The notes: a model not told the origin generated them from the sequence alone. A stretch of 64,000 bases of DNA from Gemmatimonadota bacterium (GCA_028873825.1 JAPPNM010000177.1:4212-68211); one strand, 5' to 3'. Counted from the stretch's first letter, positions 5,166-31,107 are shown. Numbers and translations: made by a program.

Positions 5166-5951
5166 ATGTCCGACATCTTCAACAACCTGTCCCGCAACCC
5201 CGCCATGGAGCGAGCGGGCTTCCGCTTCGGCCCGCGCGGCACCCATGGGAGCCGCACCATCATGCTCCGCGAACTAACCGAGCTTCTCGCCGCGCTTCCC
5301 CCCGATGCGACCCGCGAAAATTACGCCACCGCCATCGTCGAGGAAAACGCCCTCGGGAAGCGGACCTACGCGACCCGCCTCAGCTCCCGCCAGCGCCTGA
5401 ACGAGATGTACGGTCTCGACCGGCGGCTGGCCCTCTTCCGAGTGCTCCGGCACCTCTGGAGAGTGGATCCCGACGGCCGCCCCATGCTTGCCATGCTCGC
5501 CGCCCTCGCTCGCGACCCGCTCCTCCGCGCGACCGCTTCCCCGGTCCTCGCGCTAGCCCCCGGCGAGGAGCTGGTTCGTTCCCGGTTCGCATCCGTCATC
5601 CGCGCCGCCGTCGGCTTGCGCCTGAACTCTGCCGTCCTCGACAAGGTGGCCCGCAACGCAGCGAGCTCGTGGGCGCAAGCGGGGCACCTGGAAGGCCGTG
5701 TCCGCAAGATCCGCCGCCGGATTGCCCCAACGCCCGCCGCCGCCGCCATGGCTCTGTGGCTGGGGCAGCTCGAAGGCCGTGCGGGTTTGTCTCTGCTCGA
5801 ATCCGCTTGGGCCACCGTGCTCGACGCTCCCGGCCGCGCCCTCCTTCCGGCCGCGCTCGATGCCAAGCGTCTCGGCTTGATTCATGCGCGGGTGGCGGGC
5901 AATGTGGTCGAGATCGATACCCGCATGCTTGACCCGGGGGTGAACTTGTGA
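5166..5951 (+). CDS. brxA: BREX protein BrxA (DUF1819-like)
   Basis: First gene of the canonical order brxA-brxB-brxC-pglX-pglZ-brxL. Its stop overlaps the brxB start (GTGA at 5948-5951). The assignment rests mostly on position and size. Confidence 0.6.
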   Translation: MSDIFNNLSRNPAMERAGFRFGPRGTHGSRTIMLRELTELLAALPPDATRENYATAIVEENALGKRTYATRLSSRQRLNEMYGLDRRLALFRVLRHLWRVDPDGRPMLAMLAALARDPLLRATASPVLALAPGEELVRSRFASVIRAAVGLRLNSAVLDKVARNAASSWAQAGHLEGRVRKIRRRIAPTPAAAAMALWLGQLEGRAGLSLLESAWATVLDAPGRALLPAALDAKRLGLIHARVAGNVVEIDTRMLDPGVNL

Positions 5952-6502
5952 ACCAGATCACGAAGCTGGCCGCAGTCTACCAGCGGCACGTCAGCGCGCC
6001 CTGGCAGCGCACCATGGCCGGAGCGCAACGAGTGATGATCATCGTGTACCCCAAGGAGCGGGAGCGGGCGCTGAGGGGCCGCATCGGCGAGTTCGAAGTG
6101 GCCACCCAAGAGGCCGGTCACCGCTGGGTTGATGTCGATACCACGCGCTGGTTCGCCGAATGGATGGCCGAGGATCCCTACCGCGATGCCTACTTCGAGG
6201 ACCCCGAACTGCTCGGCATGAAGCTGGAGGGCGAGTTCAAGACATTTGCCGCCGACCAGCTTACCGCGGCCCTGGAGGGCGCCGACAGGAACACCGTCGT
6301 CGCCCTCATCGGCAGCGCGTCGCTCTACGGATTCCTGCGCGTGTCCGAGCTGATCCAGTCGGTCGAACCCTTGATTCCGGGCCGTCTGGCCGTCTTCTTC
6401 CCCGGCACCAAGAACGACAACAACTACCGCCTGCTCGACGCCCGCGACGGATGGAGCTACCTGGCCCAGCCGATCACGCTGCACGACGCCTGGGTGCCGT
6501 AG
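5948..6502 (+). CDS. brxB: BREX protein BrxB (DUF1788-like)
   Basis: 184 aa, the position and size expected for BrxB. Translationally coupled to brxA. Confidence 0.65.
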   Translation: MNQITKLAAVYQRHVSAPWQRTMAGAQRVMIIVYPKERERALRGRIGEFEVATQEAGHRWVDVDTTRWFAEWMAEDPYRDAYFEDPELLGMKLEGEFKTFAADQLTAALEGADRNTVVALIGSASLYGFLRVSELIQSVEPLIPGRLAVFFPGTKNDNNYRLLDARDGWSYLAQPITLHDAWVP

Positions 6503-6539
6503 GAGCCCGCGAGATGCGGACACCTTCCGCCAAACCCGC

Positions 6540-9500
6540 ATGCCACGAATGAAGATCCACGAACTCCTCGACCGCGATCCGCTTCAAGTGAGACTGGCCA
6601 ACAACGGCCAGGCCCGAATCACCGGCGGGACCGACCCGAGGGTGATGCGCGAGCTGCGCGCCGAGCTCGAGACCTTCGTCTGCACCGGCCGTTTCGCCGA
6701 CGCCCTGCAACGCATCCTGGAGCGGTACCTGGCGCACCTTGACGCGCCCCGCCAGGATGCGGTCTGGGTGAGCGGTTTCTTCGGAAGCGGCAAGTCGCAT
6801 CTGCTCAAGATGCTGGCCCACCTCTGGGAGGATACGAAGTTCGACGACGGCGCCACGGCCCGCGGACTCGTCGCCGGCCGGCTGCCGTCGGAAGTCGGGG
6901 ACGCCCTGCGGGAGCTGGAGGTCCGTGCGCGCCGCATCGGCAGGCCGCCCGTGGCCGCCGCCGGGTCGCTGCTCGGAGGCACCATCGGCCATGTGCGGCT
7001 CTCCGTGCTGGCCGTCCTGTTGCGGGCGCGCGGGTTCCCCGAGCAGTACCCACAGGCCCGGTTCTGCTTCTGGTTGCGCCAAAACGGACTCCTGGACCGA
7101 GTCCGCGGCGCCGTCGACGCGGAAGGTCGGAGTTGGGAAGGCGAACTTCACAACCTCTACGTGAGCCCGGTCATCGCCAACGCGCTCATCGAAGCCGACC
7201 CGACGTTCGCCGCGGATGTCAAGGCGGCGCGGCAGCTCCTCTTCCAGCAATTCCCGCCGCCGAAAACGGACATCACGACCGACGAGTTCGTGACGGCAGC
7301 CAAGCAGGTGCTGGCCCCCGACGGCGAGATCCCGCCGACCGTTCTCGTGCTCGACGAAGTACAGCAGTACATCAACGAGGCCCAGGACCGTTCGGCCACC
7401 ATCACCGAGCTGGCGGAGGCGCTTCAGACGCGGTTCGACAGCCGCGTGCTCCTCGTCGCATCGGGCCAGTCCGCCCTCTCTGCAGGCACGACGGCCCTGC
7501 AGTGGCTCAGCGACCGGTTTCGCACGTCCGTGCAGCTCACCGACGCCGAGGTGGAGGCCGTCACGCGCGAGGTGCTGTTGCGGAAGCGCCCGACCGCGAC
7601 ACCGGCCGTCGAGCGGATGTTCGAAGACCACGCGGGCGAGGTGTCGCGGCACCTCGGCGGGACACGCCTGGCGGTGCGGCCGGAAGATACTGACAACAAC
7701 GTGGGCGACTACCCGCTTCTGCGGACCCGCAGGCGCTTCTGGGAGGAGTGTTTCCGGGCCGCCGACCCGTCGGGCACGCAGAGCCAGCTCCGTTCGCAGC
7801 TCAGGATCCTGTACGACTCGCTCCAGGAGGTTGCGGAGGAGCCGCTGGGTACCGTGATTCGCGCCAGCGACCTGTTTCGCGCGCTCGCGGCCGACCTGGT
7901 CGGCGCGGACGTGCTGCTGAACGAGATCAACACCCGCATCGCGAAGCTCGACGACGGAACGCCCGAGGGCACGCTCATGGCCGACCTGTGCGGGCTGGTG
8001 TTCCTCATCGGCAAGCTGCCCCGGCAGGATGCGGTGGATCTCGGGGTTCGGGCGAATGCCGGGACGCTCGCCGACTTGCTTGTGAAGGAAATCACAAGCG
8101 ACTCCGGGCCCTTCCGGCACACCGTGGCGGTCGAGTTGGAGAAGCTCGCCGACGAAGGCGTGTTGATGAAGGTGGCCGACGAGTACCGCATCCAGACCAC
8201 CGAGGGCGCCGACTGGGAGCGGGCCTTCCGGGAGGAGCGGACCGCGCTCGGCCGCAACGAGGTCGAGGTCGCGGCGCGCAGGGAGCAGCTTCTGCGCGGT
8301 GCGGTACAGGAGATCGTGGGGCAGGTTCGGCCCGTGCATGGGGAGGCGAAGATCCGGCGAAGGGTCGAGCTGCGGCTGCACGGCGACCCGGACCCGGCCG
8401 GGAGCAACGCCGTCGGTGTCCGGCTCGGCGACGAGTGGTCGGTGTCTTGGGCGCAGGTGCGCGACGAGGCGCTGAAGCGCGGCATGGAGGACCCCGTGCT
8501 TCACATGCACCTCCCGAAGCAGAGCGCCGAGGAGCTGCGAAGGCACATCGTGGCCGTGGAGGCGGCCCGCCGGGTCATGGACCACCGCGGCACGCCCGCG
8601 TCCAGAGAGGGTCAGGAGGCGCGCACGAGCATGAAGAGCAGGCTCGAGGGTTCCGAGGCCGCGCGCAACGAGATCGTGAGGACCATCGTGCGGTCGGCCA
8701 GGGTCCTGCAGAGCGGAGGCGCAGAGATCTACGGCGAGGACCTTGTGTCGAAGCTGCGGACGGGTGCCGACAAGTCGCTGTGCCGCCTGTTTCCGCACTT
8801 CACCGAGGGCGACCACCGGGCCTGGCAGCCGGCGCTCAAGCGGGCGCGGGAGGGGTCGGGGGAACCATTCAAGGCGGTGGGCTGGACGGGACCGGTGTCG
8901 GAGCACCCTGTCTCGAAGCGGGTCCTCGCCGTGGTGGGCGTCGCGGCCCAGGGATCGGCTGTCCGGCGAACCTTGGAATCCGCGCCGTACGGGTGGCCCC
9001 GGGACGCCATCGACGCGGCGCTGGTCGCCCTGCACCGGGACGGACACCTCAGGGCGGAGCGGAACGGCCGGCCGTTGGCCACGGCCCAGCTGGACCAGAC
9101 CGCCATCTCCAAGGCCCGGTTCCGTCCCGAGAAGGTGCGTCTGACGACCGGGCAGCGGGTTGAGCTGCGGGGGTTGTTCGGAAAGCTGGGGGTGCGGGCC
9201 AGGAGTGGTGAGGAGGAGGAGGGGGGGCGCAGGTTCTTGGTAGCCTTGGCGGAGCTTGCGGCGAGGGCGGGGGGCGAGCCGCCGCTGCCCGCGGTGCCGG
9301 GCACGGGCGTCGTGGACGGCATCTCCCAGCTCACGGGCAACGAACAGCTCGCGGCGATGCTGGAGCACCGGGAGGAGATCGAGGGTGCGATCGGGGAATG
9401 GGGTGGTTTGGCGGAGCGGGCCGAGGGGCGGTTGGGGCGTTGGAAGCTCGCGAAGGCTCTGCATCGTCATGCGCGGGGGGAGCTGGAGATAGCAGAGGTG

Positions 9501-10016
9501 GTTGGGGCGCAGTTGGCGGCCATCGAGGAGCAGCGCAGCCTGCTTGAGGCGACCGACCACGTTTCGCCGCGTCTGGCGAGGGTGGCCGGGGCGTTGAGGA
9601 CGGAGCTGGGGGCGCGGCACGGGGAGCTTGGTGAGGCGGTGGTGCGGGCCGTGGACGGGTTGGACTCCGATGCGACGTGGGCGAAGCTGGACGAGACGGT
9701 TCGGGCGGAGATTCTTGGTGTGGTGGGTTTGGTGATGCCGTCGCCGCTCGCGGTCGAAACGGACGAGGCGCTGAGGCGGGAGCTGGACCGGCGTGGGCTG
9801 GCGGCGTGGCGTTCGGAGATCGATGCGGTGCAGGTGCGGGCGGGGAGGGCGCTGGGGGAGGCGGCGGGGCGGTTGGGTGGGGAGGAGACGCCGGTGAACT
9901 ACGTGAACGTGCGCCTCGGCACGTTGAAGGACGAGGAAGCCGTTCAGCGGTGGGTTGCGGAGCATAGGGGCAAGCTTACTGAGGCGGTCCGCAAGGGGCC
10001 GGTGATAGTGCGGTGA
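6540..10016 (+). CDS. brxC: BREX ATPase BrxC/PglY (DUF499-type P-loop)
   Basis: 1158 aa. Walker A motif GFFGSGKSHLLK near residue 80, Walker B-like VLVLDEVQQY. Alternative ATG at 6549. Confidence 0.85.
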   Translation: MPRMKIHELLDRDPLQVRLANNGQARITGGTDPRVMRELRAELETFVCTGRFADALQRILERYLAHLDAPRQDAVWVSGFFGSGKSHLLKMLAHLWEDTKFDDGATARGLVAGRLPSEVGDALRELEVRARRIGRPPVAAAGSLLGGTIGHVRLSVLAVLLRARGFPEQYPQARFCFWLRQNGLLDRVRGAVDAEGRSWEGELHNLYVSPVIANALIEADPTFAADVKAARQLLFQQFPPPKTDITTDEFVTAAKQVLAPDGEIPPTVLVLDEVQQYINEAQDRSATITELAEALQTRFDSRVLLVASGQSALSAGTTALQWLSDRFRTSVQLTDAEVEAVTREVLLRKRPTATPAVERMFEDHAGEVSRHLGGTRLAVRPEDTDNNVGDYPLLRTRRRFWEECFRAADPSGTQSQLRSQLRILYDSLQEVAEEPLGTVIRASDLFRALAADLVGADVLLNEINTRIAKLDDGTPEGTLMADLCGLVFLIGKLPRQDAVDLGVRANAGTLADLLVKEITSDSGPFRHTVAVELEKLADEGVLMKVADEYRIQTTEGADWERAFREERTALGRNEVEVAARREQLLRGAVQEIVGQVRPVHGEAKIRRRVELRLHGDPDPAGSNAVGVRLGDEWSVSWAQVRDEALKRGMEDPVLHMHLPKQSAEELRRHIVAVEAARRVMDHRGTPASREGQEARTSMKSRLEGSEAARNEIVRTIVRSARVLQSGGAEIYGEDLVSKLRTGADKSLCRLFPHFTEGDHRAWQPALKRAREGSGEPFKAVGWTGPVSEHPVSKRVLAVVGVAAQGSAVRRTLESAPYGWPRDAIDAALVALHRDGHLRAERNGRPLATAQLDQTAISKARFRPEKVRLTTGQRVELRGLFGKLGVRARSGEEEEGGRRFLVALAELAARAGGEPPLPAVPGTGVVDGISQLTGNEQLAAMLEHREEIEGAIGEWGGLAERAEGRLGRWKLAKALHRHARGELEIAEVVGAQLAAIEEQRSLLEATDHVSPRLARVAGALRTELGARHGELGEAVVRAVDGLDSDATWAKLDETVRAEILGVVGLVMPSPLAVETDEALRRELDRRGLAAWRSEIDAVQVRAGRALGEAAGRLGGEETPVNYVNVRLGTLKDEEAVQRWVAEHRGKLTEAVRKGPVIVR

Positions 10017-10855
10017 GGAACTCGATCTCTTCCACGCCTCCGCGCAGGGTGCGAGCCGGCGCGGTCAGGACCATGCCGACCGAACTCTGGACCATCCCGT
10101 CGGCAACGGTGAACGAGATCGACATGGAGGCGTTCGACTCGTTCACCCGGGCGCGGAGCGGGCACCCGGAGGGCGGCACGCGACCAGGAACCGACGAGGA
10201 TCTACGCGACGCCTCGGTGTGTGTGGAAGTGGACGGCATTCTGCGCCCGACCTTCTACGGTCTGACGGTCTTCGGCAGAGGGCCGCAACGGTATTCTGGA
10301 ACCCTCAGCCTGTTCGTTCAGTGCGCCCGGTATGCGGGGCTCGATCGCGCCGCCAGGCCGATCAGCGTGGGGGAGGCCAAGGGGAGGCTCGAGGACCAGA
10401 TCGACAGGGCGATGGGGTGGTTCCGCAGCCTCGGGCGCCGGGAGGAGTACCACGGCATCCTTCGCGAGGACATACCGCTCATGCCGGAGTGGGTCCTCCG
10501 CGAGGCCCTGGTGAATGCCGTCGTCCACCGCGACTACGCGGAGCGCGGATCGAAGATCCTCCTGGAGGTCTTCAGCGACCGCATCGAGGTCTCCAGTCCG
10601 GGAACTCTGCCACACGACATCACGGTCGCGCAGGCGATCGGGGGCGGTGCCCCGCAGCCACGCAACGAGATGATGGCCAACGCGATGGTCGTGCAGGGGC
10701 GGATGCGGGGGAGGGGGAGGGGATGGCCGCTGATGCGGAAGGAGATGCGCGAGTTCAACGGGACGGAGCCCGAACTCATCAACGAGGTGGCAGGGAGATA
10801 TGTGCGGGTGAGGTTCCTGACGCCATTGGGAAAGGAAGCCGGGAGCAGCCGATGA
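10013..10855 (+). CDS. COG2865-family protein lacking the AlbA_2 N-domain (HATPase_c_4-like core only)
   Basis: The GTG at 10013 overlaps the brxC stop (GTGA). Contains the motif LREALVNAVVHRDY. Colinear with the C-terminal half of the 23172 gene: RPTFYGLTVFG vs RPTLYGLLAFG, and GRGRGWPLM vs KRGRGWLLM. The true start is uncertain. Confidence 0.6.
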   Translation: MRNSISSTPPRRVRAGAVRTMPTELWTIPSATVNEIDMEAFDSFTRARSGHPEGGTRPGTDEDLRDASVCVEVDGILRPTFYGLTVFGRGPQRYSGTLSLFVQCARYAGLDRAARPISVGEAKGRLEDQIDRAMGWFRSLGRREEYHGILREDIPLMPEWVLREALVNAVVHRDYAERGSKILLEVFSDRIEVSSPGTLPHDITVAQAIGGGAPQPRNEMMANAMVVQGRMRGRGRGWPLMRKEMREFNGTEPELINEVAGRYVRVRFLTPLGKEAGSSR

Positions 10856-10950
10856 GCGATCAGTCAGCCAACGAACACGGCAGTCCGGTGACATTCCGGT
10901 TCTCGAACATCGGCGCGCAGCCCTTCCGAGGTCCCTTGGGGAGCACATAG
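10852..10950 (+). pseudogene. 32-codon stub resembling the N-terminus of the following ATPase
   Basis: MSDQSANEHGSPVTFRFSNIGAQPF... compared with ...ASAVTFRFANLGPVREA of the 10952 gene. ATGA overlap with the preceding gene. TAG at 10948-10950. Confidence 0.45.
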
Positions 10951-10951
10951 A

Positions 10952-12412
10952 ATGAGTCGCCGAAGACAGGCAGGGCCCGCGAACTCGCAGTCCGCCGTCC
11001 CGGACGCGAGCGCCGTGACCTTCCGTTTCGCCAACCTGGGACCGGTCAGGGAGGCGTCCCTCCGCCCCGGTCGGCTGACCGTCGTCGCGGGACGCAACAA
11101 CACCGGGAAAACCTACATCGCGCACATGCTCTTCGGGTTTCTGCAGGCCTGGCGGCAGTGGCCCGGCGCGCTGGACACGATTCTGGAGCACCCGCGGGTC
11201 TTTCCCGACGTCCTCGCGGCCGCCGAGTCGCTGTTCGAGCGTGGCCGCGCGGTGATTCCGCTGGGCGACGCCTCGATCTTCGAACAGAGGCGGCTGCTCG
11301 CTGGCGAGCTTGGACGGGCCTTCTCGGAGCGGAACATGTCAGGGGTCATGGGATCGCGCGGGAACCGCTTCAAGGGCGCGACCCTGTCCCTTGCCGTCGA
11401 CGAGCGGGAGTTGCCGCCGGTGTTCTCGAACGCGCGCGTCCGCTTCGACGACGCCACGCTGGACGTGGGACGGGTCGGGAACAACGCGGTGATCTCGATC
11501 GACGAGGCGGAACGCGACGACCCCGATTTCGCGGCGCTGCCCGACTGGACGGCGACCGCCTACTGCTTCTTCCTCCTCCACGACCTGCTGCCTCCCCCCG
11601 TCGCACTGTCGGCGGACCGCGTCGGCATTTCCCTGTTCGCCGAGGATCTCGACTTCATGAAGGACCGGCTCGTGGATCTCCTGGTCGAGAGGGTGAACAA
11701 CGCCGGCGCCCAACCCGACCGCCCCTTCCTCGTAGTCGGCGACATCCCTGGCCGGTACGCCCTTCCCGTCCTCGAGAACATCGACTCCACGCGGCGGATG
11801 TCCACGCTGCCCCGTCGTGGCGATCTCGTCTCCGGCCAAGCGATTGCGGACGACATCAAGCGGATGACGGGGGGGTATTTCAGTCACGCCCGGGATCCGA
11901 TTCGGTTCATATCGCAGAAGCGCGACGGGAAGTTCAATGTCCCGCTTCGCCTGGCCTCGTCGTCGGCCCGGGCAATGGCCGACCTCTACTTCTTCGCCAG
12001 GTACGCCTCGGTCGGCAGGGAGTTCCTGATCATAGACACTCCGGAGAGCCACCTCGACACCGAGAACCAGGTGACTCTCGCCCGTGTGCTGGCGGGGCTG
12101 GTCCGCGAAGGCCTGCACCTGCTGATCACGACCCACAGCCCCTTTCTGCTCAAGGAGCTCAACAACCTGATCATGCTCCACGGAGACTCGCTCAAGAAGC
12201 TCGACCTCGCCCGCTCGCTGGGCTACAATCCCCGCGACGGGCTCGATCCGCGACTGGTTCGGGCCTACGTCGCCGAGGACGGCGGCCTCACGCCGGCCAG
12301 GGTCGACGACTTCGGCATCAGCCTGCCCTTCCTCGACGAGGTCGCGCGGGAAGTCTCCCGTGCGGCGGAACTGCTGGGCGATCTGGTGCGCGAGGAGGCG
12401 CGGGGCGAGTGA
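10952..12412 (+). CDS. ABC/AAA_15-AAA_21-type ATPase (OLD/abortive-infection-like ATPase without a visible nuclease domain)
   Basis: Walker A GRNNTGKTY, signature-like LASSSARAM, Walker B FLIIDTPESHLD, and the H-loop region LITTHSPFLL. Confidence 0.75.
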   Translation: MSRRRQAGPANSQSAVPDASAVTFRFANLGPVREASLRPGRLTVVAGRNNTGKTYIAHMLFGFLQAWRQWPGALDTILEHPRVFPDVLAAAESLFERGRAVIPLGDASIFEQRRLLAGELGRAFSERNMSGVMGSRGNRFKGATLSLAVDERELPPVFSNARVRFDDATLDVGRVGNNAVISIDEAERDDPDFAALPDWTATAYCFFLLHDLLPPPVALSADRVGISLFAEDLDFMKDRLVDLLVERVNNAGAQPDRPFLVVGDIPGRYALPVLENIDSTRRMSTLPRRGDLVSGQAIADDIKRMTGGYFSHARDPIRFISQKRDGKFNVPLRLASSSARAMADLYFFARYASVGREFLIIDTPESHLDTENQVTLARVLAGLVREGLHLLITTHSPFLLKELNNLIMLHGDSLKKLDLARSLGYNPRDGLDPRLVRAYVAEDGGLTPARVDDFGISLPFLDEVAREVSRAAELLGDLVREEARGE

Positions 12413-12432
12413 GGATGATTCCCGAAACGCAA

Positions 12433-12462
12433 GAGCCCCGAGGACGAAACGCCTCGGGGCTC
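12433..12462 (+). terminator. GC-rich hairpin after the ATPase gene
   Basis: GAGCCCCGAGG-ACGAAACG-CCTCGGGGCTC: an 11-bp perfect stem starting 21 nt after the stop. No clear U-tract follows. Confidence 0.45.
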
Positions 12463-12572
12463 CTACCTCAGCGTCTTGCTGCGCCCGAAGGCGTGTGCAG
12501 TAGAGGACGACCTGAGGAATTACACCAGGAGCATCGTCGATTCCCGCTCAGGACGCAACTCGCGGAGCTGCG

Positions 12573-13286
12573 ATGCTATCCATCGGAAGCCTTCGAAGTG
12601 CCCTCTCGGCGGAGCGGCTGGGTGCCTACGTCCGGCCAGGGGACACCGACGAAGTGGACAGCGTGGCCAGGTACCTGTGGAACTTGGCGCTGTGTAGCGC
12701 CCTCCAACCGGCGCTCCACATCCTTGAGGTCACCGTCCGGAACCACCTCTTCAAGGTTTCCAGAAGGATCGTGGATGAGACCACGCTCAGTTTCGACAGG
12801 ATTCCTTGTTGGCTCGACGCACGACCCTCGCTCCTTGCCGAACGCGAGCGTCAGGCCGTCGAGGAGGCGAAGGCCACGATCGAGATGCGGGGGAGTCCGA
12901 TGACCGAGGGACGGCTGGTTTCGGCACTGGGGTTTGGTTTCTGGGTCAGCCTGTGCAAGAGGCCGTACGAGCAGGGGCGCACTGTCGGGCCGCGTCTTTG
13001 GCCCGGACTGGCGAGGAAGGGATTTCCGCATCTGCCCAAACCGATGCGGACACGCAGTCAGGTATTCCACGCCTTGGATCCGCTCCGCGACCTGCGTATC
13101 CGCGTCTCGCACCATCAAGCCGTCCGGGACCGGAGGCTCGCGCGAAGCCATCAGGACATCCTCGACACCATTGCCTGGATCAACCGCGATCTGGCGGCAA
13201 CGCTAGAGGCACACTCGCCGCTCCCGGCAATACTCGGCAAGGGCGTGGCCGGCTTCCGGGCTCAGGCCGAGGCGATCATCAGGTGA
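12573..13286 (+). CDS. Abi_2 (AbiD/AbiF-like) abortive-infection family protein
   Basis: Contains LSAERLGAYV, ARYLWNLALCSALQPALHILEVTVRNHL, GFGFWVSL and DLRIRVSHHQAV. This is the pattern recalled for Pfam Abi_2. Confidence 0.7.
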   Translation: MLSIGSLRSALSAERLGAYVRPGDTDEVDSVARYLWNLALCSALQPALHILEVTVRNHLFKVSRRIVDETTLSFDRIPCWLDARPSLLAERERQAVEEAKATIEMRGSPMTEGRLVSALGFGFWVSLCKRPYEQGRTVGPRLWPGLARKGFPHLPKPMRTRSQVFHALDPLRDLRIRVSHHQAVRDRRLARSHQDILDTIAWINRDLAATLEAHSPLPAILGKGVAGFRAQAEAIIR

Positions 13287-23160: not shown

Positions 23161-23171
23161 CGCGCCGGAAG

Positions 23172-24353
23172 ATGAACCTGAACGAATTTCGCGAGAGAAT
23201 CCGAGCCGGCGAGAGCGAGCGGCTGGAGTTCAAGCGCGAGGCGCGCGACCTCCGGGCGGTCGGCCGGGCCGTCTGCGCGTTCGCCAACTCGTCCGGCGGC
23301 ACGGTCGTCATTGGCGTGGACGACCGGGGCGGAATCGTGGGCGTGGACGAAGATCCGGACGGGCTGCAGGAACGCCTGAGCGGCTTTCTCCACACCGGAC
23401 TGAGTTCCCCCGTTTCGGCGAGGTGCGGCTGTCTGGAGACTCCCGCCGGCTGGGTGCACTGGATCAGGGTCCCCCACCAGCAGCGCGGGTTCGAGCCCAT
23501 GCGCCACAGGGGCCGCTACTGGGTGCGCCGCGGCAGGAGCAGCGTCGAGCCGTCGCCCTCCGGGCTGGAGGAGCTCCTCCAAGTCTTCGGGTTCGTAATG
23601 ACGGAGGACCAAGTGATCCCGTCGGCGGAGGAACATCACATCGACCTGGCCGTGTTCACCGCCCACCTGCGGGCCATGGGACTCAAGCCCGACGAGGGGC
23701 CCCAGCCTTCCATGACCGACGACCTTCGCAATCGCGGAGTGACCGCGGAACTGGACGGGGTCATGCGTCCGACCCTCTACGGCCTGCTAGCGTTCGGCAA
23801 GCATCCGCAGCAATACCCCCAGATGGGGAACTTCGTCGTGCGTTGCGCCGCCTACCTGGGCGACCACCAGGGATCGGAGGTCATTTCGGCCAGCGAGAGC
23901 CGGGGACGTCTGGAGGAGCAGGTGAATCGCGCGCTGGAGTGGGTCCGATCCTTCGGCTGGCGCGAGGAATACCGGGGTCTCTACCGCCGCAACGTGCCGC
24001 TGGTCCCCGAGGACGCCCTCCGCGAGGCGCTGGTGAACGCGGTCGTGCACCGGGACTACTCGATCACCGGATCGCCGGTGTCGCTGGACGTGCTGCGGGA
24101 CCGGGTTCTGGTGACCAGTCCGGGGGCTCTTCCGAATCACATGACCGAGGAGAGCGTGCGCGCGGGCGGGCGGCCCCGGTCCCGCAACGAGCTCATGGTC
24201 AACGCGATGGTCGTGGCCAGGTTGATGGAGAAGCGCGGGAGGGGATGGCTGCTGATGAGTGAGGCGATGGCGGAGTTCGATCTGCCCGAGCCGGAGATCG
24301 AGAACGATCCCGCGGGACGCACAGTGCGGGTGACGCTGAGGCGCGTGCCATGA
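23172..24353 (+). CDS. COG2865/Schlafen-like protein (AlbA_2 + HATPase_c_4)
   Basis: 393 aa. Contains GESERLEFKREA, AFANSSGGTVVIGVDD and LREALVNAVVHRDY. Confidence 0.75.
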   Translation: MNLNEFRERIRAGESERLEFKREARDLRAVGRAVCAFANSSGGTVVIGVDDRGGIVGVDEDPDGLQERLSGFLHTGLSSPVSARCGCLETPAGWVHWIRVPHQQRGFEPMRHRGRYWVRRGRSSVEPSPSGLEELLQVFGFVMTEDQVIPSAEEHHIDLAVFTAHLRAMGLKPDEGPQPSMTDDLRNRGVTAELDGVMRPTLYGLLAFGKHPQQYPQMGNFVVRCAAYLGDHQGSEVISASESRGRLEEQVNRALEWVRSFGWREEYRGLYRRNVPLVPEDALREALVNAVVHRDYSITGSPVSLDVLRDRVLVTSPGALPNHMTEESVRAGGRPRSRNELMVNAMVVARLMEKRGRGWLLMSEAMAEFDLPEPEIENDPAGRTVRVTLRRVP

Positions 24354-24422: not shown

Positions 24423-24758
24423 ATGCCCAAGACTAGAGCCGAGATACTCGACGTGCTGGAACGCCTCGACGAGTGCGTGGCGGACGATCTCGAGGGCCAG
24501 CATCTCGACTTCAAGCAGTGGGATCAACGCAGCGACCGGGGCGCGCTGCGACAAATTGCTTCATTTCCTTCCCCGATCCGCAAGACGGGTGCGCATCGTG
24601 GGGCGCGAGACCGGACACGCGTTACCTGGCAGGCTCGTGATGGTGGAGCGGGCACCTGGGACCGCGGGAAATGGGACAAATCGGGACGGGTCGGGGCGTT
24701 CCTTGTCCCAATTCGCGCCGGATCGTTGGAAATGTATCAGCAGCGGATGATCCCATGA
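24423..24758 (+). pseudogene. stub ORF: the first 36 or so codons resemble the N-terminus of the 21043 COG2865 gene, the rest is unrelated
   Basis: ILDVLERLDECVADDLEGQHLDFKQWD compared with LLDRLDEFPAHDLEFQNLDFKEWD. The ORF stop overlaps the ATG of the next gene (ATGA at 24755-24758). Confidence 0.4.
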
Positions 24759-26440
24759 CCCCTCTCCTCTCCCCCGCCGAGCTCCAGACCGTCCTGTCCC
24801 GCGGCGAAGGCCAGTTCGTCGAGTTCAAGTCCGCGTGGGACCGCACTACTTCACCGCGCAAGCCCGTCGCGCGCCGCGCCCTGCGCGACAAGATCGCCGA
24901 TGCCGTCGCCGCCTTCGCGAACGCCGACGGTGGCCTGCTCTTGGTCGGAGTGGACGACGACGGCACCGCCACCGGGCACCGCTACCCAGACCATGTCGTG
25001 GACGACCTGTTCGCCGTCCCCGACCGCCGACTGACCCCCGCCGTCGACTGCCGCACGGCGCGCTTGTCGCTCGATTGCCACGAGATCCTCGCCTTCCAGG
25101 TCCCGATTGCCTCCGAAGCCGTCATGATCGACGGGAACAGCTTCCCGTATCGGGTCGGCGCCCGGATCATCCGGGAGCCGCAGGAGATCATCAACCAGCG
25201 GAAGCAGGCGTATCGCCTCGTCGGCTACGAGCAACGCTTCAGCCCGGAAGCGACTGTGGACGATCTGGACCTGGCGCTGGCCGAGTCCTTCCTGAAGGAG
25301 ACGCCGGTTGGGGACCGTCCCGTCCTCGATGCCCTCGACTACTACGGCCTCATCGAGATGGACGTACGCGACTGGAGGGTGACCAACGCCGCTCTCCTGC
25401 TCTTTGCGCGCCGCCCGGCGCTCCGCTGGCATCCCCGCGCGGGCCTCCGGGTGTTCCGCGTCGCAGGAACGGAGATCAGGTACGGGCGCCGGCGGAACGT
25501 GACGCAGATCGGGCGGGCGGATCCTCCGCTGGCCCTGGCCGTCCACGAGATAGTGGAGCTGGCGCGGCACCAGGTGCGCAGGTCCGAGAAACTGGTCGGT
25601 CTCCACTTCGAGGACATCACCGAGTACCCCCACTTCGCGTGGCAGGAATCGTTGGTCAACGCCATTGCCCACCGCGACTACGAAGTGCAGGGCCGCGAAA
25701 CCGAAATCTGGTTCTTCGAGGACCGGCTCGAAGTGTCGAGTCCGGGAGAGCTCCTTCCGCCCGTCACCGTGGACACGCTGCGAGAGGGCCACAGGGCTCA
25801 TGTGACCCGCAATCCGATGCTGGTCCGGGTTCTCGCCGACACGGAGATCATGCGGGACGAGGGGGAGGGGATCGTGCGGGTCTTCCGCGAAATGGCGAAC
25901 AGCTTTCTCCGCGAACCGGAGATGACCTCCGCGAACGGCCTGTTCACGATCACGCTTCGCAACGAGCCCGACTGGGAGGCACACGGACCGGGTTGGAGGC
26001 ACTTCGTCGACTGGCTTCGCGTCACGGACGATCAGAAGAGGATGCTACTCCTGCGGCCGTACGGGTTCACACAGGCCGACTATGAGCGGCTGAACACGAT
26101 GTCGCCCGAGGAAGCGGCTCGGCGGATCGCGGATCTGGTAAGCGGAGAACTCGTGATCGGCCTTCCCGCTCCAGACAATGTCGGGCCGATGTTCGTGGTG
26201 CGGCCGGACAAGGAAAAGATGGGCCTCTTCCTGAACGACCGGATCCTTAGGCTCCGGGAGCATTTCCGGAAGCAGCCCTGGCTCAAGAATGCCGACTATC
26301 GCGAGGTCTTCGACGTTGACCGGCGAAAGGCGACCAGGGAGCTCCGCCAGCTCGCGGAGGTCTTCGGTCTGCTGCGGATGGAAGGGACCCGCCGGGGTGC
26401 CCACTACCGCCCAACGTCCGCGCTCGGAGCGAGCTTATGA
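24755..26440 (+). CDS. COG2865/Schlafen-like protein (AlbA_2 + HATPase_c_4 + C-terminal extension)
   Basis: MTPLLSPAELQTVLSRGEGQFVEFKSAWD..., AFANADGGLLLVGVDDDG, and WQESLVNAIAHRDY. The start is chosen at the ATG at 24755 within ORF 24671..26440. Confidence 0.75.
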   Translation: MTPLLSPAELQTVLSRGEGQFVEFKSAWDRTTSPRKPVARRALRDKIADAVAAFANADGGLLLVGVDDDGTATGHRYPDHVVDDLFAVPDRRLTPAVDCRTARLSLDCHEILAFQVPIASEAVMIDGNSFPYRVGARIIREPQEIINQRKQAYRLVGYEQRFSPEATVDDLDLALAESFLKETPVGDRPVLDALDYYGLIEMDVRDWRVTNAALLLFARRPALRWHPRAGLRVFRVAGTEIRYGRRRNVTQIGRADPPLALAVHEIVELARHQVRRSEKLVGLHFEDITEYPHFAWQESLVNAIAHRDYEVQGRETEIWFFEDRLEVSSPGELLPPVTVDTLREGHRAHVTRNPMLVRVLADTEIMRDEGEGIVRVFREMANSFLREPEMTSANGLFTITLRNEPDWEAHGPGWRHFVDWLRVTDDQKRMLLLRPYGFTQADYERLNTMSPEEAARRIADLVSGELVIGLPAPDNVGPMFVVRPDKEKMGLFLNDRILRLREHFRKQPWLKNADYREVFDVDRRKATRELRQLAEVFGLLRMEGTRRGAHYRPTSALGASL

Positions 26441-26701
26441 GCGTGCAGAGACCAGTTATGACCGTTGGTCACGTAAATCGTAAAATGTTGCAGTACAGTC
26501 TTTTACGAAAGATATGAACTTCAGCATCGTGAATATGACCACTAGCGTGGCCGCGTTTTCGGTTGCCATCCGGTGGAATCAGCGTCGCGCGGCTCCACCG
26601 GCTATGATCACCACTCACCGAGCTATGACCACCCGCGACGATCATCACAACCTGTTGTCGACAAATCTCTTACGAGACATATGCCCCCGAGGTCCGCACT
26701 T
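26441..26701 (+). promoter_or_regulatory. AT-rich repeat-bearing region upstream of pglZ (probable internal promoter/operator region)
   Basis: A 60-nt sample is about 37% GC. About eight TATGA(C/T/A) motifs. Palindrome TGACC-GTT-GGTCA at 26459-26471. T(T/C)TTACGA(A/G)A(G/C)ATATG occurs twice. Confidence 0.5.
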
Positions 26702-29047
26702 ATGACGGAACACGGCACCCAGGGCTCCCCCCCCACCCCCCTCGACCACCTTGCCCGCTCCCTCCGCGCCCGCGCCTCGGTCCCGAGCGGCCAGGCCGCC
26801 CCCGCCTCCATTCTGTGGACCGACCCCGGAGCCGAATGGCGCGGACTCCTCCCGGAAGCGCTTGCTCGCATCCCCGAGCTGCTCGTCCTTGGCGACTACG
26901 CTCCAGACGACCGCACCGGTCCCGCGATCTGGCTGCGCTGCGTGGTGGACGGCACGATCGAAGTCCCCGGACTCCCCGCCGACGCCACCCCCATCCTATA
27001 CCTCCCCGGAGTCGAACGCGGCGAGCTGCGCGCCGGCGAGGAGTGCCCCGACCGGCTCAAGCCGCTCGTCGAGCTCATGTACCGCGGCGTCCTCTGGCAC
27101 AATCCCAAGGGCCTCGACTGGACGGTGACAGCGTTCCTGACCTCATCCGGCGGCCCGGATCTCGACATCGCCCCCGACCGGGGAACGGCAGCGGCGCTGC
27201 ACGGCGCCCTCGACCACATCGCCACCACCCCGGTCAGCCACCTGCGCGGCCACCGCCTCGATGCCGCCGACTTCAACCGCATGGCCGGAGTCGATGTGTT
27301 CCGCGATATCCTGCGCTGGATGGGCGACCCCGAGCGCATGCGATCCGGGCCGGACGAGAGCCGCTGGAACGCCTTCCGCGCGGAGTGCCGGAGCGATCTC
27401 CGGTTCGACCCCGAGACGGAGCCGGACGTGTCGGCCGGAGCCAGGCTCGGCGAGGGATCGGGCCCCTGGGCCAAGGTGTGGGCCCGGTTCACCGAAGCGC
27501 CGGATGCCTTCCCCGGCGTGCCCGAAGTGCTGGCTCGCAGCCGTCCCGCGGGCGAGCTGGCACTGGATCGGGAACCGTGGCCCGACCTCAACGCCGAGGA
27601 CGAGGAGGCGGTGCGGAGCGCGCTGGCCGGTCTTCCGGGCCTGTCCCATACCGATGCGTGCCGGGCGGTCGCGCGGCTGGAGGGAGATCACGGCCATCGC
27701 CGGCGCTGGGTCTGGGCACGCCTGGGACGGTCTCCGCTCGCCGAAGTGCTGAAGCCGCTGGCCCGGCTGGCCGGGATTGCCGACAAGGCCATCGGTGGTG
27801 CAAGCCCGGACGATGTGGCCGAAGTCTATGCCGAGCGCGGTTGGCTGGCGGACGCGGGCGCCCGAGAGGCTCTATCCCTGGCTCCCGCCGAGCACGAAGA
27901 GACGGTTGCCGCCGCAGTGCGCCACCTGCTCGAGCCTTGGCTGGAAGACTCCGCCCGCGCGTTCCAGTCGGCGGTGGATCGCCGGCCGCTCCCCTCCGCC
28001 GGTGACCAGCCGGCGGTCACGGCCGGCGAAGACGAATGCATCCTGTTCGTCGACGGCCTCCGCTACGAGCTCGGACGGTCGCTCGCCGAACGGCTGGAGG
28101 CACGCGGATGTCGCACGGAGACGCGCCGCCGTTGGGCCGCGATCCCTACGGTGACCGGCACCGCCAAGCCCGCCGTAACCCCGGTAGCGCGCGATGTCGC
28201 CGGGGACCGGCTCGGCTCCGACTTCCGTCCCGCCATGCGGGGCTCCGGCCGACCCGCCCTGGCCAAGGACCTGCGCAAGGCCACGGAAGGGCGGGGCTAC
28301 CAGATTCTCGGTTCGGGCACCCTGGATATCCCGCTGAACTCCGGTGCCCGCGGCTGGTTGGAGACCGGTGAGATCGACAAGCACGGTCACCACCACCGCG
28401 CGGCGTCGTTCGCCCGCCAGATCGAAGAGGAGCTGGACCGGCTGGCCGGCCGGATCGCGGGGCTGCTGAAGGCGGGCTGGAGTTCGGTCCGCGTCGTCAC
28501 CGACCACGGGTGGCTGCTGCTCCCCGGCGGCCTCCCGATGGTCACCCTGCCCAAACACCTCACCGAGTCCAAGTGGGCACGGTGCGCCGTCGTTTCGGCC
28601 GGCTCCACGCCGGACGCGCCTCTTCATCCCTGGCACTGGAACCCGCAGGAGTGGTTCGCCTCTCCACCCGGAATCGCCTGCTTCAGCCAGACGCCGGAGT
28701 ATGCGCACGGCGGCCTCAGCATCCAGGAATGCCTGATCCCGGACATTCGTGTCGAAGGGACGGCTGACGGGGGCGCGACCGCGAAGATCCTATCCGTCTC
28801 CTGGGTCCGCTTCCGCTGCAAGGTCGTCGTCGAGGCCCGGGGCGGCCCCGTCACGGCCGATCTGCGGCTCGGCGGTCCGACGGGCGAATCGGTCGCGTCC
28901 TCGCCCAAAGCCATCGACGACAACGGACGGGCCAGCCTGGTCCTTGCCGGCGACGAATACGAGAACGCCGCGCTGGTCCTCGTGGTTACCGATGCCGGCG
29001 GCCGCGTCCTCGCCCAACAACCGACCCGCAAGGGAGAGAACATATGA
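26702..29047 (+). CDS. pglZ: BREX alkaline-phosphatase-superfamily protein PglZ
   Basis: About 780 aa from the ATG at 26702. The upstream part of ORF 26573 lies in the AT-rich region and is not protein-like. Position between pglX and brxL. C-terminal half contains ILFVDGLRYELG...VTDHGW. Confidence 0.85.
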   Translation: MTEHGTQGSPPTPLDHLARSLRARASVPSGQAAPASILWTDPGAEWRGLLPEALARIPELLVLGDYAPDDRTGPAIWLRCVVDGTIEVPGLPADATPILYLPGVERGELRAGEECPDRLKPLVELMYRGVLWHNPKGLDWTVTAFLTSSGGPDLDIAPDRGTAAALHGALDHIATTPVSHLRGHRLDAADFNRMAGVDVFRDILRWMGDPERMRSGPDESRWNAFRAECRSDLRFDPETEPDVSAGARLGEGSGPWAKVWARFTEAPDAFPGVPEVLARSRPAGELALDREPWPDLNAEDEEAVRSALAGLPGLSHTDACRAVARLEGDHGHRRRWVWARLGRSPLAEVLKPLARLAGIADKAIGGASPDDVAEVYAERGWLADAGAREALSLAPAEHEETVAAAVRHLLEPWLEDSARAFQSAVDRRPLPSAGDQPAVTAGEDECILFVDGLRYELGRSLAERLEARGCRTETRRRWAAIPTVTGTAKPAVTPVARDVAGDRLGSDFRPAMRGSGRPALAKDLRKATEGRGYQILGSGTLDIPLNSGARGWLETGEIDKHGHHHRAASFARQIEEELDRLAGRIAGLLKAGWSSVRVVTDHGWLLLPGGLPMVTLPKHLTESKWARCAVVSAGSTPDAPLHPWHWNPQEWFASPPGIACFSQTPEYAHGGLSIQECLIPDIRVEGTADGGATAKILSVSWVRFRCKVVVEARGGPVTADLRLGGPTGESVASSPKAIDDNGRASLVLAGDEYENAALVLVVTDAGGRVLAQQPTRKGENI

Positions 29048-31107
29048 GTGCGCCCGAATTCCAGATGGACGCGCTGGACCACACCGCCAACGAGGCCTTC
29101 CCCGGCTACCTGGTGCGGAAGGACCTCGTGCGGCGCTACGCCCGCCAGTACCCTGTCCCCACCTACGTCGTCGAGTTCCTCCTCGGCCGCTACTGCGCCA
29201 GCGTCGACCAAGAGGAGATCGACGAGGGCCTCGCGATCGTGAAGAACCAGCTCGAAGGGCGCACAGTCCGCGCCGCCGAGCGGGAGATCTTCAAGATGAG
29301 GGCGCGCGAGGAGGGATCCGTCCGCCTCATCGACATCCTGCGCGCCCGCCTGGACGCGAAGAACGACTGCTACCTCGCCGAACTACCCAGCCTCGGCCTC
29401 CGGGACATCCGCATCGAGAGCGGGTTCGTCACCGACCACCAGCGGATGCTCGCCGACGGGCTCTACGCCGAGGTGACGCTGGAATACGACCCGGTGATCG
29501 CCCAGGAAAAACAGGGACGCCCGTTCAGCATCGCGGCCATGCGCCCCATCCAGATGTCGAGCCCGTCGGTCCTCAAGGTGCTGGCCAAGGGACGGCGCCG
29601 CTTCAACACCGACGATTGGACCGACTTCCTCCTCCGTTCGACCGGCCTGGAGCCGTCCGCGCTGGACGATCGGGCCAAGCGTGTCGCGCTCCTCCGCCTG
29701 ATCCCCTTCGTCGAGCGCAACTACAACCTCGTCGAACTCGGTCCCCGCGGCACGGGCAAGAGTCACGTCTACCAGCAGCTCTCTCCGCACTCCCACCTGC
29801 TCTCGGGCGGCAAGGCCACCGTGGCGAAGATGTTCGTCAACATGGCCAACGGACAGCGAGGCCTAGTGTGCCAGTACGACGTGGTGTGCTTCGACGAGGT
29901 CGCCGGCATCTCCTTCGACCAGAAGGACGGCGTCAACATCATGAAGGGGTACATGGCGTCGGGCGAGTTCAGCCGGGGCAAGGAGAGCATCCGCGCGGAG
30001 GGGTCGCTGGTGCTGGTCGGCAACTTCGACGTTTCGGTGGAGCAGCAGCAGCGCATCGGCCACCTGTTGAGCCCGTTGCCGAAGCAGATGCGGGACGACA
30101 CGGCCTTCCACGACCGGATCCACGGCTACGCCCCCGGCTGGGACTTTCCCAAGCTCAATCCCGGCGAGCACCTCACCGATCATTTCGGCCTGGTCAACGA
30201 CTTCCTGAGTGCATGCTGGACCAAGCTGCGGGACACGACGCGCCTGCCGCTCCTGCAGAATCGGGTGTTCTGGGGCGGCGCGCTGTCCGGACGGGACATC
30301 GAGGCGGTCCACAAGACGGTCTCCGGGCTGATCAAGCTGCTGTTCCCGGATGGTGAGATGGAGGTGGACGACGAGGATCTGGAGTGGATGGTGCGGCTGG
30401 CCCTGGAGTCGCGCCGGCGCGTGAAGGAACAGCAGAAGCGGTGTCTGAAGGCCGAGTTCCGGAGCACCCACTTCTCGTACACGCTCGGTGTGGACGGGAC
30501 GGAGCAGTTCGTGGCGACGCCAGAGCTTCGCAGCGACGAGGCGATCGACAGCGACCCGTTGCCTCCCGGGCAGGTGTGGGCGATCGGGCCGGGGGTGGAG
30601 GGTACCGGGCCGGGGCTCTACCGGATCGAGGTGGTCGTGGGGCCGGGGGCGGGGGGCGCGAAGATCCTGAACCAGCCGGTGCCGCCTGCGTTTAGGGAGA
30701 GTGTCCGGGTGGGGGAGCAGAATCTGTACACGGGGGGGAAGGCGCTGGTGGGGGACCGCGACGCGCGGGCGCACCAGTACACCGTTCAGATGCAGCCTCG
30801 GGACAACGACAAATCGGGGACCGGGCTGGGACTGCCGGTGCTCGCGGCGATGGTGGGGGGATTGCTGGACCGGAAGACGCGTGGGGCGACCATCATCGTG
30901 GGGCCGCTGAACCTGGGGGGATCGCTGGAACGGATCGCGGACCCGGTGGCGATGGCGGAGCTGGCGGTGGACAAACAGGCTACCGTGCTGCTGATGCCGG
31001 TGGGGGCGCGCCGGGAGCTGATGAATCTCGACGACGATGTGTGGACGAAGGTGAATATCGAATTCTACCGGGACGCGCAGAACGGGCTGTTCAAGGTGTT
31101 GGAGTGA
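29044..31107 (+). CDS. brxL: BREX Lon-like protease BrxL
   Basis: 687 aa. ATGA overlap with pglZ. AAA+ Walker A LGPRGTGKSHVYQ. Lon-protease-like C-terminal region ...GLGLPVLAAMVGGLL... Confidence 0.85.
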   Translation: MSAPEFQMDALDHTANEAFPGYLVRKDLVRRYARQYPVPTYVVEFLLGRYCASVDQEEIDEGLAIVKNQLEGRTVRAAEREIFKMRAREEGSVRLIDILRARLDAKNDCYLAELPSLGLRDIRIESGFVTDHQRMLADGLYAEVTLEYDPVIAQEKQGRPFSIAAMRPIQMSSPSVLKVLAKGRRRFNTDDWTDFLLRSTGLEPSALDDRAKRVALLRLIPFVERNYNLVELGPRGTGKSHVYQQLSPHSHLLSGGKATVAKMFVNMANGQRGLVCQYDVVCFDEVAGISFDQKDGVNIMKGYMASGEFSRGKESIRAEGSLVLVGNFDVSVEQQQRIGHLLSPLPKQMRDDTAFHDRIHGYAPGWDFPKLNPGEHLTDHFGLVNDFLSACWTKLRDTTRLPLLQNRVFWGGALSGRDIEAVHKTVSGLIKLLFPDGEMEVDDEDLEWMVRLALESRRRVKEQQKRCLKAEFRSTHFSYTLGVDGTEQFVATPELRSDEAIDSDPLPPGQVWAIGPGVEGTGPGLYRIEVVVGPGAGGAKILNQPVPPAFRESVRVGEQNLYTGGKALVGDRDARAHQYTVQMQPRDNDKSGTGLGLPVLAAMVGGLLDRKTRGATIIVGPLNLGGSLERIADPVAMAELAVDKQATVLLMPVGARRELMNLDDDVWTKVNIEFYRDAQNGLFKVLE

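Follow-up and report, generated by a model that had tools for sequence, protein, structure and literature searches.

Type 1 BREX locus of an uncultured Gemmatimonadota bacterium with defence-related cargo at two internal junctions

Type 1 bacteriophage exclusion (BREX) systems are characterized by methylation of a 6-bp non-palindromic motif together with phage exclusion. Here we describe a type 1 BREX (BREX-1) locus that occupies positions 5166-31107 on the + strand of a 64,000-nucleotide stretch of DNA, hereafter the window, from a Gemmatimonadota bacterium (GCA_028873825.1, JAPPNM010000177.1:4212-68211). Its six core genes, brxA-brxB-brxC-pglX-pglZ-brxL, are interrupted by further genes between brxC and pglX (slot 1) and between pglX and pglZ (slot 2).

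Internal genes of this kind have clear precedents. Embedded systems have been described for BREX, DISARM, type I restriction-modification (RM) systems and Hma, with 96.7% co-orientation (Payne et al. 2024, bioRxiv 10.1101/2024.01.29.577857), and of about 9,000 pglX-pglZ loci counted by Went et al. 2024 (PMC11341690), about 7,000 have intervening genes. For genes encoding a Schlafen domain, a histidine kinase domain and a winged helix-turn-helix (wHTH), passages of a recent article give a minimum of 1,017 taxa in which they are closely linked to the BREX core (NAR 2026, PMC12839542). Parts of a preprint name Schlafen-HisKinase(-HTH) as the commonest prokaryotic Schlafen architecture, and in its section 3 a DUF262 fusion and an Ig-like fusion are the only ones shown to defend among seven proteins tested (bioRxiv 10.1101/2025.07.24.666596). 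Set against this background, the present locus is a heavily loaded but ordinary BREX-1 example. We consider it very likely that it is a functional system in which self-contained defence modules are exchanged at the two internal junctions.

Core genes and cargo of the locus

All six core genes are intact and stand in the canonical order, each with a full-length PADLOC hidden Markov model (HMM) match, which agrees with the first-pass annotation of the window.

5129-5157, + strand: sigma-70-like promoter candidate TTGACA-17-TATCTT, directly 5' of brxA (consensus match only)
5166-5951, + strand: brxA (PADLOC BrxA PDLC02450, E 1.7e-88, residues 12-255)
5948-6502, + strand: brxB (PADLOC BrxB, E 3.7e-71, full length)
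6540-10016, + strand: brxC, ATPase (PADLOC BrxC-PglY, E 0, residues 4-1157)
13567-17226, + strand: pglX, methyltransferase (PADLOC PglX, E 0)
26702-29047, + strand: pglZ, 781 aa (PADLOC PglZ, E 2.5e-257)
29044-31107, + strand: brxL, Lon-like (PADLOC BrxL, E 3.4e-277; Pfam BrxL_ATPase, E 5e-125, and BrxL_N)

The Walker A motifs of BrxC (GFFGSGKS, residue 79) and BrxL are intact. PglX retains the N6-adenine methyltransferase motifs DPCCGSGHF at 314 (S-adenosylmethionine motif I) and TNVPF at 516 (NPPY-like motif IV), matches Eco57I, N6_Mtase and MmeI_Mtase in Pfam, and has a variable target-recognition region at approximately residues 661-800 (approximately 15547-15966). The brxA/brxB junction is a GTGA overlap. 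The maximal open reading frame (ORF) of pglZ begins at 26573; the ATG at 26702 gives 781 residues, the same length as called for the homologue in L001 (loci used for comparison are numbered with the prefix L), and the product scores 812 bits against NCBIfam BREX_PglZ_1_B ('BREX-1 PglZ type B', cutoff 400).

The GC content of the window is about 68%, and the closest PglX relatives, up to 89% identical, belong to Gemmatimonadota/Longimicrobiales metagenome-assembled genomes (MAGs). A location on a plasmid or an integrative and conjugative element, hinted at by an ArdC-like/transposase ORF, was rejected because the RelA/SpoT, UvrB and LptD genes downstream point to a chromosome. The locus is a complete chromosomal type 1 BREX of an uncultured, Longimicrobiales-like member of Gemmatimonadota. 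Neither tRNA nor Rfam features that might mark island borders were found within the window.

The gap between brxC and pglX measures 3,550 bp and that between pglX and pglZ, counted to the ATG at 26702, 9,475 bp. These values reproduce the earlier estimates of about 3.5 and 9.5 kb, whose sum is already 13 kb; the total cargo is 13.0 kb rather than the 'about 16 kb' first given. The cargo ORFs are without exception on the + strand and enclosed by brxC and pglZ, showing the nesting and co-orientation by which Payne et al. recognize embedded systems, and they are homologous to defence families (Dsr2, PD-T4-4_A, PDC-M47A, PD-T4-5 and SLFN/GHKL), as expected of such systems. No transposase or integrase was found inside the BREX locus of the window.

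10013-10855, + strand: tCOG, 5'-truncated COG2865 relic consisting of linker and HATPase_c_4 (Pfam E 1.6e-17)
10852-10950, + strand: 32-aa stub of an ABC-ATPase N-terminus (55% identity to residues 11-30 of the next ATPase)
10952-12412, + strand: ABC-type ATPase, PD-T4-4_A-like (PADLOC PD-T4-4_A, E 8.9e-68; also PDC-M47A)
12433-12462, + strand: strong GC hairpin with 11-bp stem, 3' of the ATPase gene (folding)
12573-13286, + strand: AbiD/F-like (PD-T4-5-like) protein, 237 aa (PADLOC PD-T4-5, E 8.3e-10, sole match)
13301-13570, + strand: Phd/YefM-like small protein (Pfam PhdYeFM_antitox, E 2.3e-11; NCBIfam phd_fam, 26.2 bits, cutoff 20.8)
17223-21050, + strand: DSR2-like SIR2 protein, 1275 aa (PADLOC Dsr2, E 6.3e-146, residues 8-1200)
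21043-22812, + strand: COGa, Schlafen/AlbA_2 and GHKL (HATPase_c_4) domains with a wHTH tail of about 190 aa (Pfam SLFN_AlbA_2, HATPase_c_4)
23172-24353, + strand: COGb, Schlafen/AlbA_2 and GHKL domains, tail-less (Pfam; ESERLEFK at 14)
24423-24560, + strand: stub of a COGa-type N-terminus, a relic (56% identity to COGa residues 1-34)
24671-26440, + strand: COGc, Schlafen/AlbA_2 and GHKL domains with a tail of about 160 aa (Pfam; EGQFVEFK at 46)

In slot 1, tCOG has lost its first approximately 145 codons including the whole Schlafen/AlbA_2 domain and is 50% identical to COGb residues 144-387; Pfam gives no SLFN_AlbA_2 match in it, hence it is devoid of the Schlafen domain that bears the Ex4(E/D)xK motif. 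Its start is uncertain between GTG 10013 and ATG 10073: homology begins at about codon 23-27, and the homologue in L004 is called as 260 aa from the ATG equivalent to 10073. The 32-aa ATPase stub, which occurs in L004 too, is a recombination scar. Domain content and paralogue alignment demonstrate that the truncated COG2865 gene and the ATPase stub, both named in the first-pass annotation, are real. The adjoining ATPase aligns through residues 23-470 to positions 2-449 of the 460-position PD-T4-4_A profile, matches Pfam AAA_15 and AAA_21, and carries Walker A GRNNTGKT at 47, LIIDTPE at 359 and TTHSP at 393. The segment 12413-12480 behind it folds with -30.7 kcal/mol (z -4.19, with 0 of 200 shuffles equally stable), and the hairpin at 12433-12462 may act in termination or in RNA processing.

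The 237-aa protein contains a HEPN-type Rx4H motif (RIRVSHH at 175). It had been labelled Abi_2; it gives no Pfam match even at E<=1 and none in NCBIfam, and only PD-T4-5, itself described as a distant relative of AbiF/D (PMC9519451), connects it to that family. The stop codon of the Phd-like gene overlaps the pglX start (ATGA), and this start/stop coupling is seen in both the window and L004. No Doc/YoeB-type toxin gene lies directly downstream of the Phd-like gene, where the next gene is pglX. In L001, ThsB_TIR and 8xMP genes instead of pglX come next after the Phd-like gene (8565-8828).

In slot 2, the 'SIR2 giant' of the earlier reading is indeed a SIR2 protein of 1275 aa, and the Dsr2 profiles refine it to DSR2-like. 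It has a Pfam SIR2_2 domain (E 4e-18) with the catalytic residues N125 (TTNWD) and H163 (KLHGS), and this stretch aligns with DSR2 chains, H171A entries among them, once the numbering is shifted by about 8. Against the DSR2 chains in PDB, the alignment covers residues 107-222 only, with nothing beyond the SIR2 domain. Since the protein also scores 503 bits against NCBIfam Dsr2, under the equivalog cutoff of 1400, we name it DSR2-like; equivalog-level similarity is not reached. The protein is a putative NAD+-depleting effector. The GC content of its gene, 0.59 against 0.68 for the window, suggests recent import.

The three COG2865 paralogues reported for this slot are confirmed by Pfam and motif matches. 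All of them contain the Schlafen Ex4(E/D)xK motif (in COGa as ExxxxDxK, EFQNLDFK at 24) and HATPase_c_4 (E 1e-18 to 5e-21), and these Schlafen-GHKL proteins would be RNases. The tail of COGa matches MarR_2 (E 1.7e-5), and tail alignment shows that the COGc tail ends in a wHTH motif common to the COGa tail. Pairwise identity is only 24-29%, which defines three subfamilies and rules out recent tandem duplication. The stub at 24423-24560 retains the catalytic motif EGQHLDFK at 24, and the segment 24357-24753 is missing from L002.

The five start/stop overlaps reported at 10013-10016, 10852-10855, 13567-13570, 17223-17226 and 21043-21050 are all present in the sequence, although they account for only 5 of the 11 cargo junctions and not for most of them. 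The overlap at 10013-10016 hinges on the arbitrary upstream GTG, and it and the one at 10852 have relics as partners; full-length genes overlap at Phd/pglX, pglX/DSR2-like and DSR2-like/COGa (ATGA or 8-bp). Four cargo junctions are gaps of 160, 359, 317 and 261 bp, one with the strong hairpin and two with repeat arrays. A scan for intrinsic terminators returned 10 sites where 9.9 are expected (the hairpin at 12433-12462 came from folding instead), and a scan for sigma-70-like promoters called none in the intergenic region between COGa and COGb (IG1), the region between COGc and pglZ (IG3) being outside the scanned range. The cargo had been assigned to the BREX transcription and translation unit. 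This holds insofar as it is on the same strand, inside the gene array and partly coupled through the three full-length-gene overlaps; a single transcript, however, is made less plausible by three intergenic regions that are AT-rich or structured and have operator-like arrays. The locus probably has several internal regulatory regions.

Occupancy, turnover and surroundings of the locus

To place the arrangement among its relatives, we surveyed 80 loci from species-representative genomes whose PglX is 46-82% identical to that of the window, locating the core genes by tblastn. The view was +/-10 kb around pglX, a slot was counted as occupied above 500 bp, and the census counts are lower bounds, ORF calls in high-GC DNA being crude. 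Slot 1 is occupied in 37 of 72 measurable loci and slot 2 in 42 of 71. Among the 66 loci measurable at both, 48 carry cargo in one or both slots (24 in both, 16 in slot 2 only, 8 in slot 1 only) and 18 are compact. Five further loci have no pglZ within 10 kb downstream of pglX, and four of the five have COG2865 homologues 6-10 kb downstream. The Pfam census of the slots is as follows.

Slot 1, 105 ORFs: AAA_21, 16; AAA_15, 15; Peptidase_M78, 5; HTH_3, 5; DUF3226, 3; 8xMP, 3; SIR2_2, 3
Slot 2, 77 ORFs: SLFN_AlbA_2 with HATPase_c_4, 21; AAA_21, 8; AIPR, 6; GmrSD_N, 4; SIR2_2, 2

The cargo of the window is typical of each slot. The comparison with other BREX-1 loci proposed in the first-pass annotation did reveal conserved insertion slots, in that the same two recur across related loci. 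Its premise that BREX is usually compact, and the view that such heavy intra-operon loading is unusual, are not borne out: most of the related loci are loaded, close relatives have the same or larger cargo, and the published counts given above agree. By both the survey and the literature, the same arrangement is common and already described for BREX-1.

The closest comparisons come from four other assemblies (L001-L004) obtained from different samples, including a 1.88-Mb contig. In L001-L003, PglX is 89% identical to that of the window and slot 2 likewise holds the DSR2-like gene and three COG2865 genes; the pglX/DSR2-like overlap is kept in L001/L002. Their slot 1 is larger than that of the window (two ATPases, DUF3226, Phd, ThsB_TIR and 8xMP; total cargo 13.9 kb), and the ATPase is present there without the 237-aa PD-T4-5-like neighbour. 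L004 is 98% identical in DNA over positions 3839 to 15614 of the window and shares slot 1 with it down to the stub. Identity then breaks sharply inside pglX: the target-recognition domain (TRD) is swapped relative to L004 (12039-12382), with 49% identity there after 11.8 kb at 98% DNA identity, and TRD swapping is seen relative to L005 and L006 as well. The DSR2-like allele of L004 (13639-20768) is 48-50% identical to that of the window and is split by two DDE transposase genes. Alleles at this same position show 83%, 48-50% and 44% identity in backbones that are 75-89% identical. Relics are found within the window (tCOG, the ATPase stub and the COGa N-terminal stub) and in relatives, as an 87-bp tCOG piece in L002 and a 261-bp COGa piece in L006. 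These relics, the divergent DSR2-like alleles and the identity breaks in pglX lead us to conclude that cassettes turn over at this locus.

Two side observations concern pglX in more distant loci. The same PglX TRD types reappear in otherwise distant backbones (for example L006/L010/L015 and L013/L014/L016), and L012, from Longimicrobiales, has two full-length pglX paralogues (10001-13582 and 16712-20314) separated by about 3 kb, with a COGa-type gene next in line.

The brxC|pglX and pglX|pglZ junctions would accordingly be hot spots at which modules are gained, lost and exchanged, presumably through homologous recombination for which the conserved BREX core genes provide the anchors. The modules would be co-expressed with BREX from several promoters and act as independent or back-up layers rather than BREX subunits, that is, as abortive-infection-type effectors behind a non-abortive BREX. 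The ABC-ATPase and its AbiD/F-like HEPN partner are probably of the abortive-infection type; the other cargo now present comprises a Phd-like small DNA-binding protein, the DSR2-like SIR2 protein and three Schlafen-GHKL proteins, two of them with wHTH tails.

Several points weigh against this view. The independence of the modules from BREX is something we infer from sequence, and the recurrence of COG2865 in slot 2 across many lineages is also expected of a true accessory component. The B component of PD-T4-4 is not recognizable beside the ATPase. The DSR2-like protein is under the equivalog cutoff, so the trigger and activity of B. subtilis DSR2 are not transferable to it. The survey, moreover, was limited to +/-10 kb around pglX and to crude ORF calls.

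The main competing explanation is that the cargo supplies genuine accessory subunits, effectors or sensors, that work mechanistically with BREX, which matches the 'backup effector' model of the NAR 2026 article. Co-orientation and the three full-length-gene overlaps, of which pglX/DSR2-like persists in two relatives, would suit this explanation, as would the position of COG2865 as the commonest slot-2 occupant and, in the passages of PMC12839542, its presence in the BREX core loci of so many taxa. We nevertheless regard it as unlikely. Over a quarter of the related loci are compact and others hold unrelated cargo, the cargo differs between close relatives, and metagenomic COGa-type genes are mostly away from recognizable BREX-1 genes. 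DSR2 and PD-T4-type systems defend as stand-alone genes, which also counts against a subunit role. Each cargo family is found outside BREX too. In Salmonella, deletion of the embedded PARIS left BREX methylation and defence in place (PMC11341690).

It is far less probable still that the locus is a decaying, non-functional BREX remnant with accumulated insertions. The three relics within it and the insertion sequence (IS) elements in the homologous slot of L004 could be read in this way, but the six core genes are full length against the HMMs with intact catalytic and Walker motifs, the large cargo ORFs are intact with their motifs present, and transposases are absent from the locus of the window. 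A metagenome assembly chimera, which the MAG contig source and the drop in GC across the DSR2-like gene might suggest, can practically be dismissed, for gene order, junctions and even the stubs recur in the four other assemblies from different samples. Taken together, the evidence favours a functional BREX-1 system with exchangeable modules at its two internal junctions.

The locus also has noteworthy surroundings. Directly after brxL, a two-gene ABC-ATPase module lies on the minus strand at 31147-33107. Its gene at 31794-33107 (minus) matches PADLOC HEC-01A (E 1e-44) and mad3 (E 4e-32), and that at 31147-31917 (minus) matches NCBIfam antiphage_MADS4 above cutoff, with no other MADS genes detected nearby. 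A 494-aa ORF at 34381-35865 (+) joins an ArdC N-terminal fragment, a zincin-like MPTase-PolyVal domain and a Mutator-family transposase segment; it resembles what is left of a mobile element, fused or decayed, at the island edge. Two PD40/Big_2 beta-propeller surface-type proteins (37684-41384 and 43274-47532) are followed by RelA/SpoT and UvrB.

Repeat arrays downstream of wHTH-tailed COG2865 genes

Each of the two wHTH-tailed COG2865 genes of slot 2 is followed by an AT-rich repeat array.

22813-23171, strand not assigned: IG1 AT-rich array, 3' of COGa (GC 0.51; 9 GAAATG/CATTTC cores)
26435-26706, + strand: IG3 array, 3' of COGc (eight WTATGMNC direct repeats, four pairs spaced 20-21 bp)

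The cores of IG1 occur as the variants GAAATGCG, GAAATGAGTCA and GAAATGTATC, and their count was reached by 0 of 300 shuffles. There are five exact copies of GAAATGCG in the window, four of them within 170 bp of IG1, and a perfect 14-nt inverted repeat lies at 23084-23121. In IG3, whose intergenic part (26441-26701) has a GC content of 0.52, the outermost repeat copies overlap the COGc stop at one end and the pglZ ATG at the other. The IG1 array is kept in L002 and L004 and the IG3 array in L001/L002, with variant motifs of the latter in L005, L006, L008, L009 and L013. By repeat counts and shuffles, the two AT-rich repeat regions of the first-pass annotation are real and non-random. A 63-codon ORF (26514-26705, +) runs in frame through IG3, so that the repeats encode a recurring M-T-T or M-I-T-T, and ends in a TGA overlapping the pglZ ATG; it is probably not a real gene.

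The association extends to other loci. In the genome loci, a low-GC stretch with an over-repeated 6-mer (p<=0.03) lies 3' of all 12 tailed COG2865 genes (tails of 157-199 aa), against 0-1 of 16 tail-less ones. Among metagenome loci with COGa-type genes, an over-repeated 6-mer is present in 53 of 72 and the top 6-mer contains ATG/CAT in 56 of 72. The corresponding values for control DNA downstream of brxL are 5 of 62 and 3 of 62, and on this control the idea that the arrays are generic 3' intergenic DNA is rejected. The arrays consist of 4-12 short locus-specific repeats built on (A/T)AATG or TATG; the loci concerned are the window, L002, L004-L006, L008, L009, L011, L014, L015, L058 and, from metagenomes, L085-L164, the latter mostly not beside recognizable BREX-1 genes. 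We also considered whether the arrays are clustered PglX recognition sites serving epigenetic autoregulation. This is rejected because the motif TATGCGCGCC does not track the PglX specificity region: L008, L009 and L013 share it, whereas their TRDs are only 27-39% identical. From these patterns, the arrays may be a new, systematic 3' cis-element of wHTH-tailed COG2865 genes. A literature search for AlbA_2/HATPase_c_4 regulators or their binding sites returned nothing relevant.

A further step would be that COGa and COGc are DNA-binding controllers whose tails bind the 3' arrays and regulate the next gene, COGb in one case and pglZ-brxL in the other. The close association of arrays with tailed genes in both sets of loci is consistent with this, as is the common C-terminal winged-helix signature of the COGa and COGc tails with their wHTH-family matches, COGb being tail-less. 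In addition, the window and L002 differ by a joint replacement of the COGa tail and the adjoining array segment, and the phased direct repeats of IG3 extend to the pglZ start codon. On the other side, L013, which has no COG2865 gene, still carries a TATGCGCGCC array close to pglZ; the gene for the putative regulator has its array on the downstream side and not upstream, which is atypical for autoregulators; and the promoter scan called nothing in IG1. On balance, such a controller role is doubtful.

The proposal can be put more generally, namely that the arrays form a class of cis-elements bound by the wHTH tails, whose role would be either to control the downstream promoter or to keep the RNase inactive until infection; the probability that we attach to it is small. 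If promoters were controlled, COGb and the pglZ-brxL pair would be governed as by the controller protein of an RM system. If the tail acted as a guard, it would hold the RNase inactive on the array DNA, and infection would displace it. Should the tails bind the arrays, this would provide a handle on regulation of, or by, a common uncharacterized class of BREX- and RM-associated proteins, and the wHTH-tailed genes would not be passive cargo but would be integrated into BREX as regulators or guards. The 3' arrays of the wHTH-tailed Schlafen-GHKL genes are the sole lead that we judge worth pursuing.

Comparison with known systems

The current picture of BREX is unchanged by this locus. What it mainly adds is a well-documented, heavily loaded BREX from a little-studied phylum. 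Four or five defence modules are present, turnover has left visible scars, and the PglX specificity domain has been swapped between relatives with 98% identity on both sides of it. Loci of this sort can help to understand how defence islands assemble around core genes and to mine candidate systems.

The nearest counterpart is the BREX island of Salmonella Typhimurium D23580 with PARIS (ariAB) (PMC11341690), which is likewise a type 1 BREX with a defence system embedded among the core genes. That island holds one two-gene system, whereas the window has two occupied slots in which about 13 kb of cargo represents four or more module types, and several relics besides; it also comes from another host phylum, and its cargo families differ from those of the island. 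The embedded systems of Payne et al. 2024 and the pEFER BREX with BrxU resemble the locus in their nested, co-oriented genes and frequent ABC-ATPase modules, and the slot-1 ATPase matches PD-T4-4_A and PDC-M47A of the Payne et al. framework. The locus itself is not named in that study, and DSR2 is absent from its main text.

With the Schlafen RNase-histidine kinase-wHTH proteins, in the passages of PMC12839542, COGa, COGb and COGc share the SLFN_AlbA_2 motif and HATPase_c_4, and COGa and COGc the wHTH. All three also fit the domain criteria of the prokaryotic pSlfn-HisKinase(-HTH) class as given in parts of bioRxiv 10.1101/2025.07.24.666596. The passages of the former article and section 3 of the preprint make no mention of 3' repeat arrays. 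The window differs from the described Schlafen-kinase proteins in having three paralogues, as divergent as noted above, and two relics in one locus.

Compared with the two-component PD-T4-4 (Vassallo et al. 2022, PMC9519451), the ATPase of slot 1 is a near end-to-end match to the A component, while its neighbour matches PD-T4-5 and no match to PD-T4-4_B was found. A PD-T4-4_A-like ATPase and a PD-T4-5-like protein do not together make up a defined system.

DSR2 is an NADase activated by phage tail tube protein. Like the DSR2 of B. subtilis, the protein in slot 2 is encoded by a single gene and combines an N-terminal SIR2 domain carrying Asn and His with a long C-terminal region and a full-length profile match. 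It departs from that protein in its score, well under the equivalog cutoff, and in that only the SIR2 domain aligns to solved chains. Unlike the B. subtilis gene, the copy described here is embedded in BREX and start/stop-coupled to pglX.

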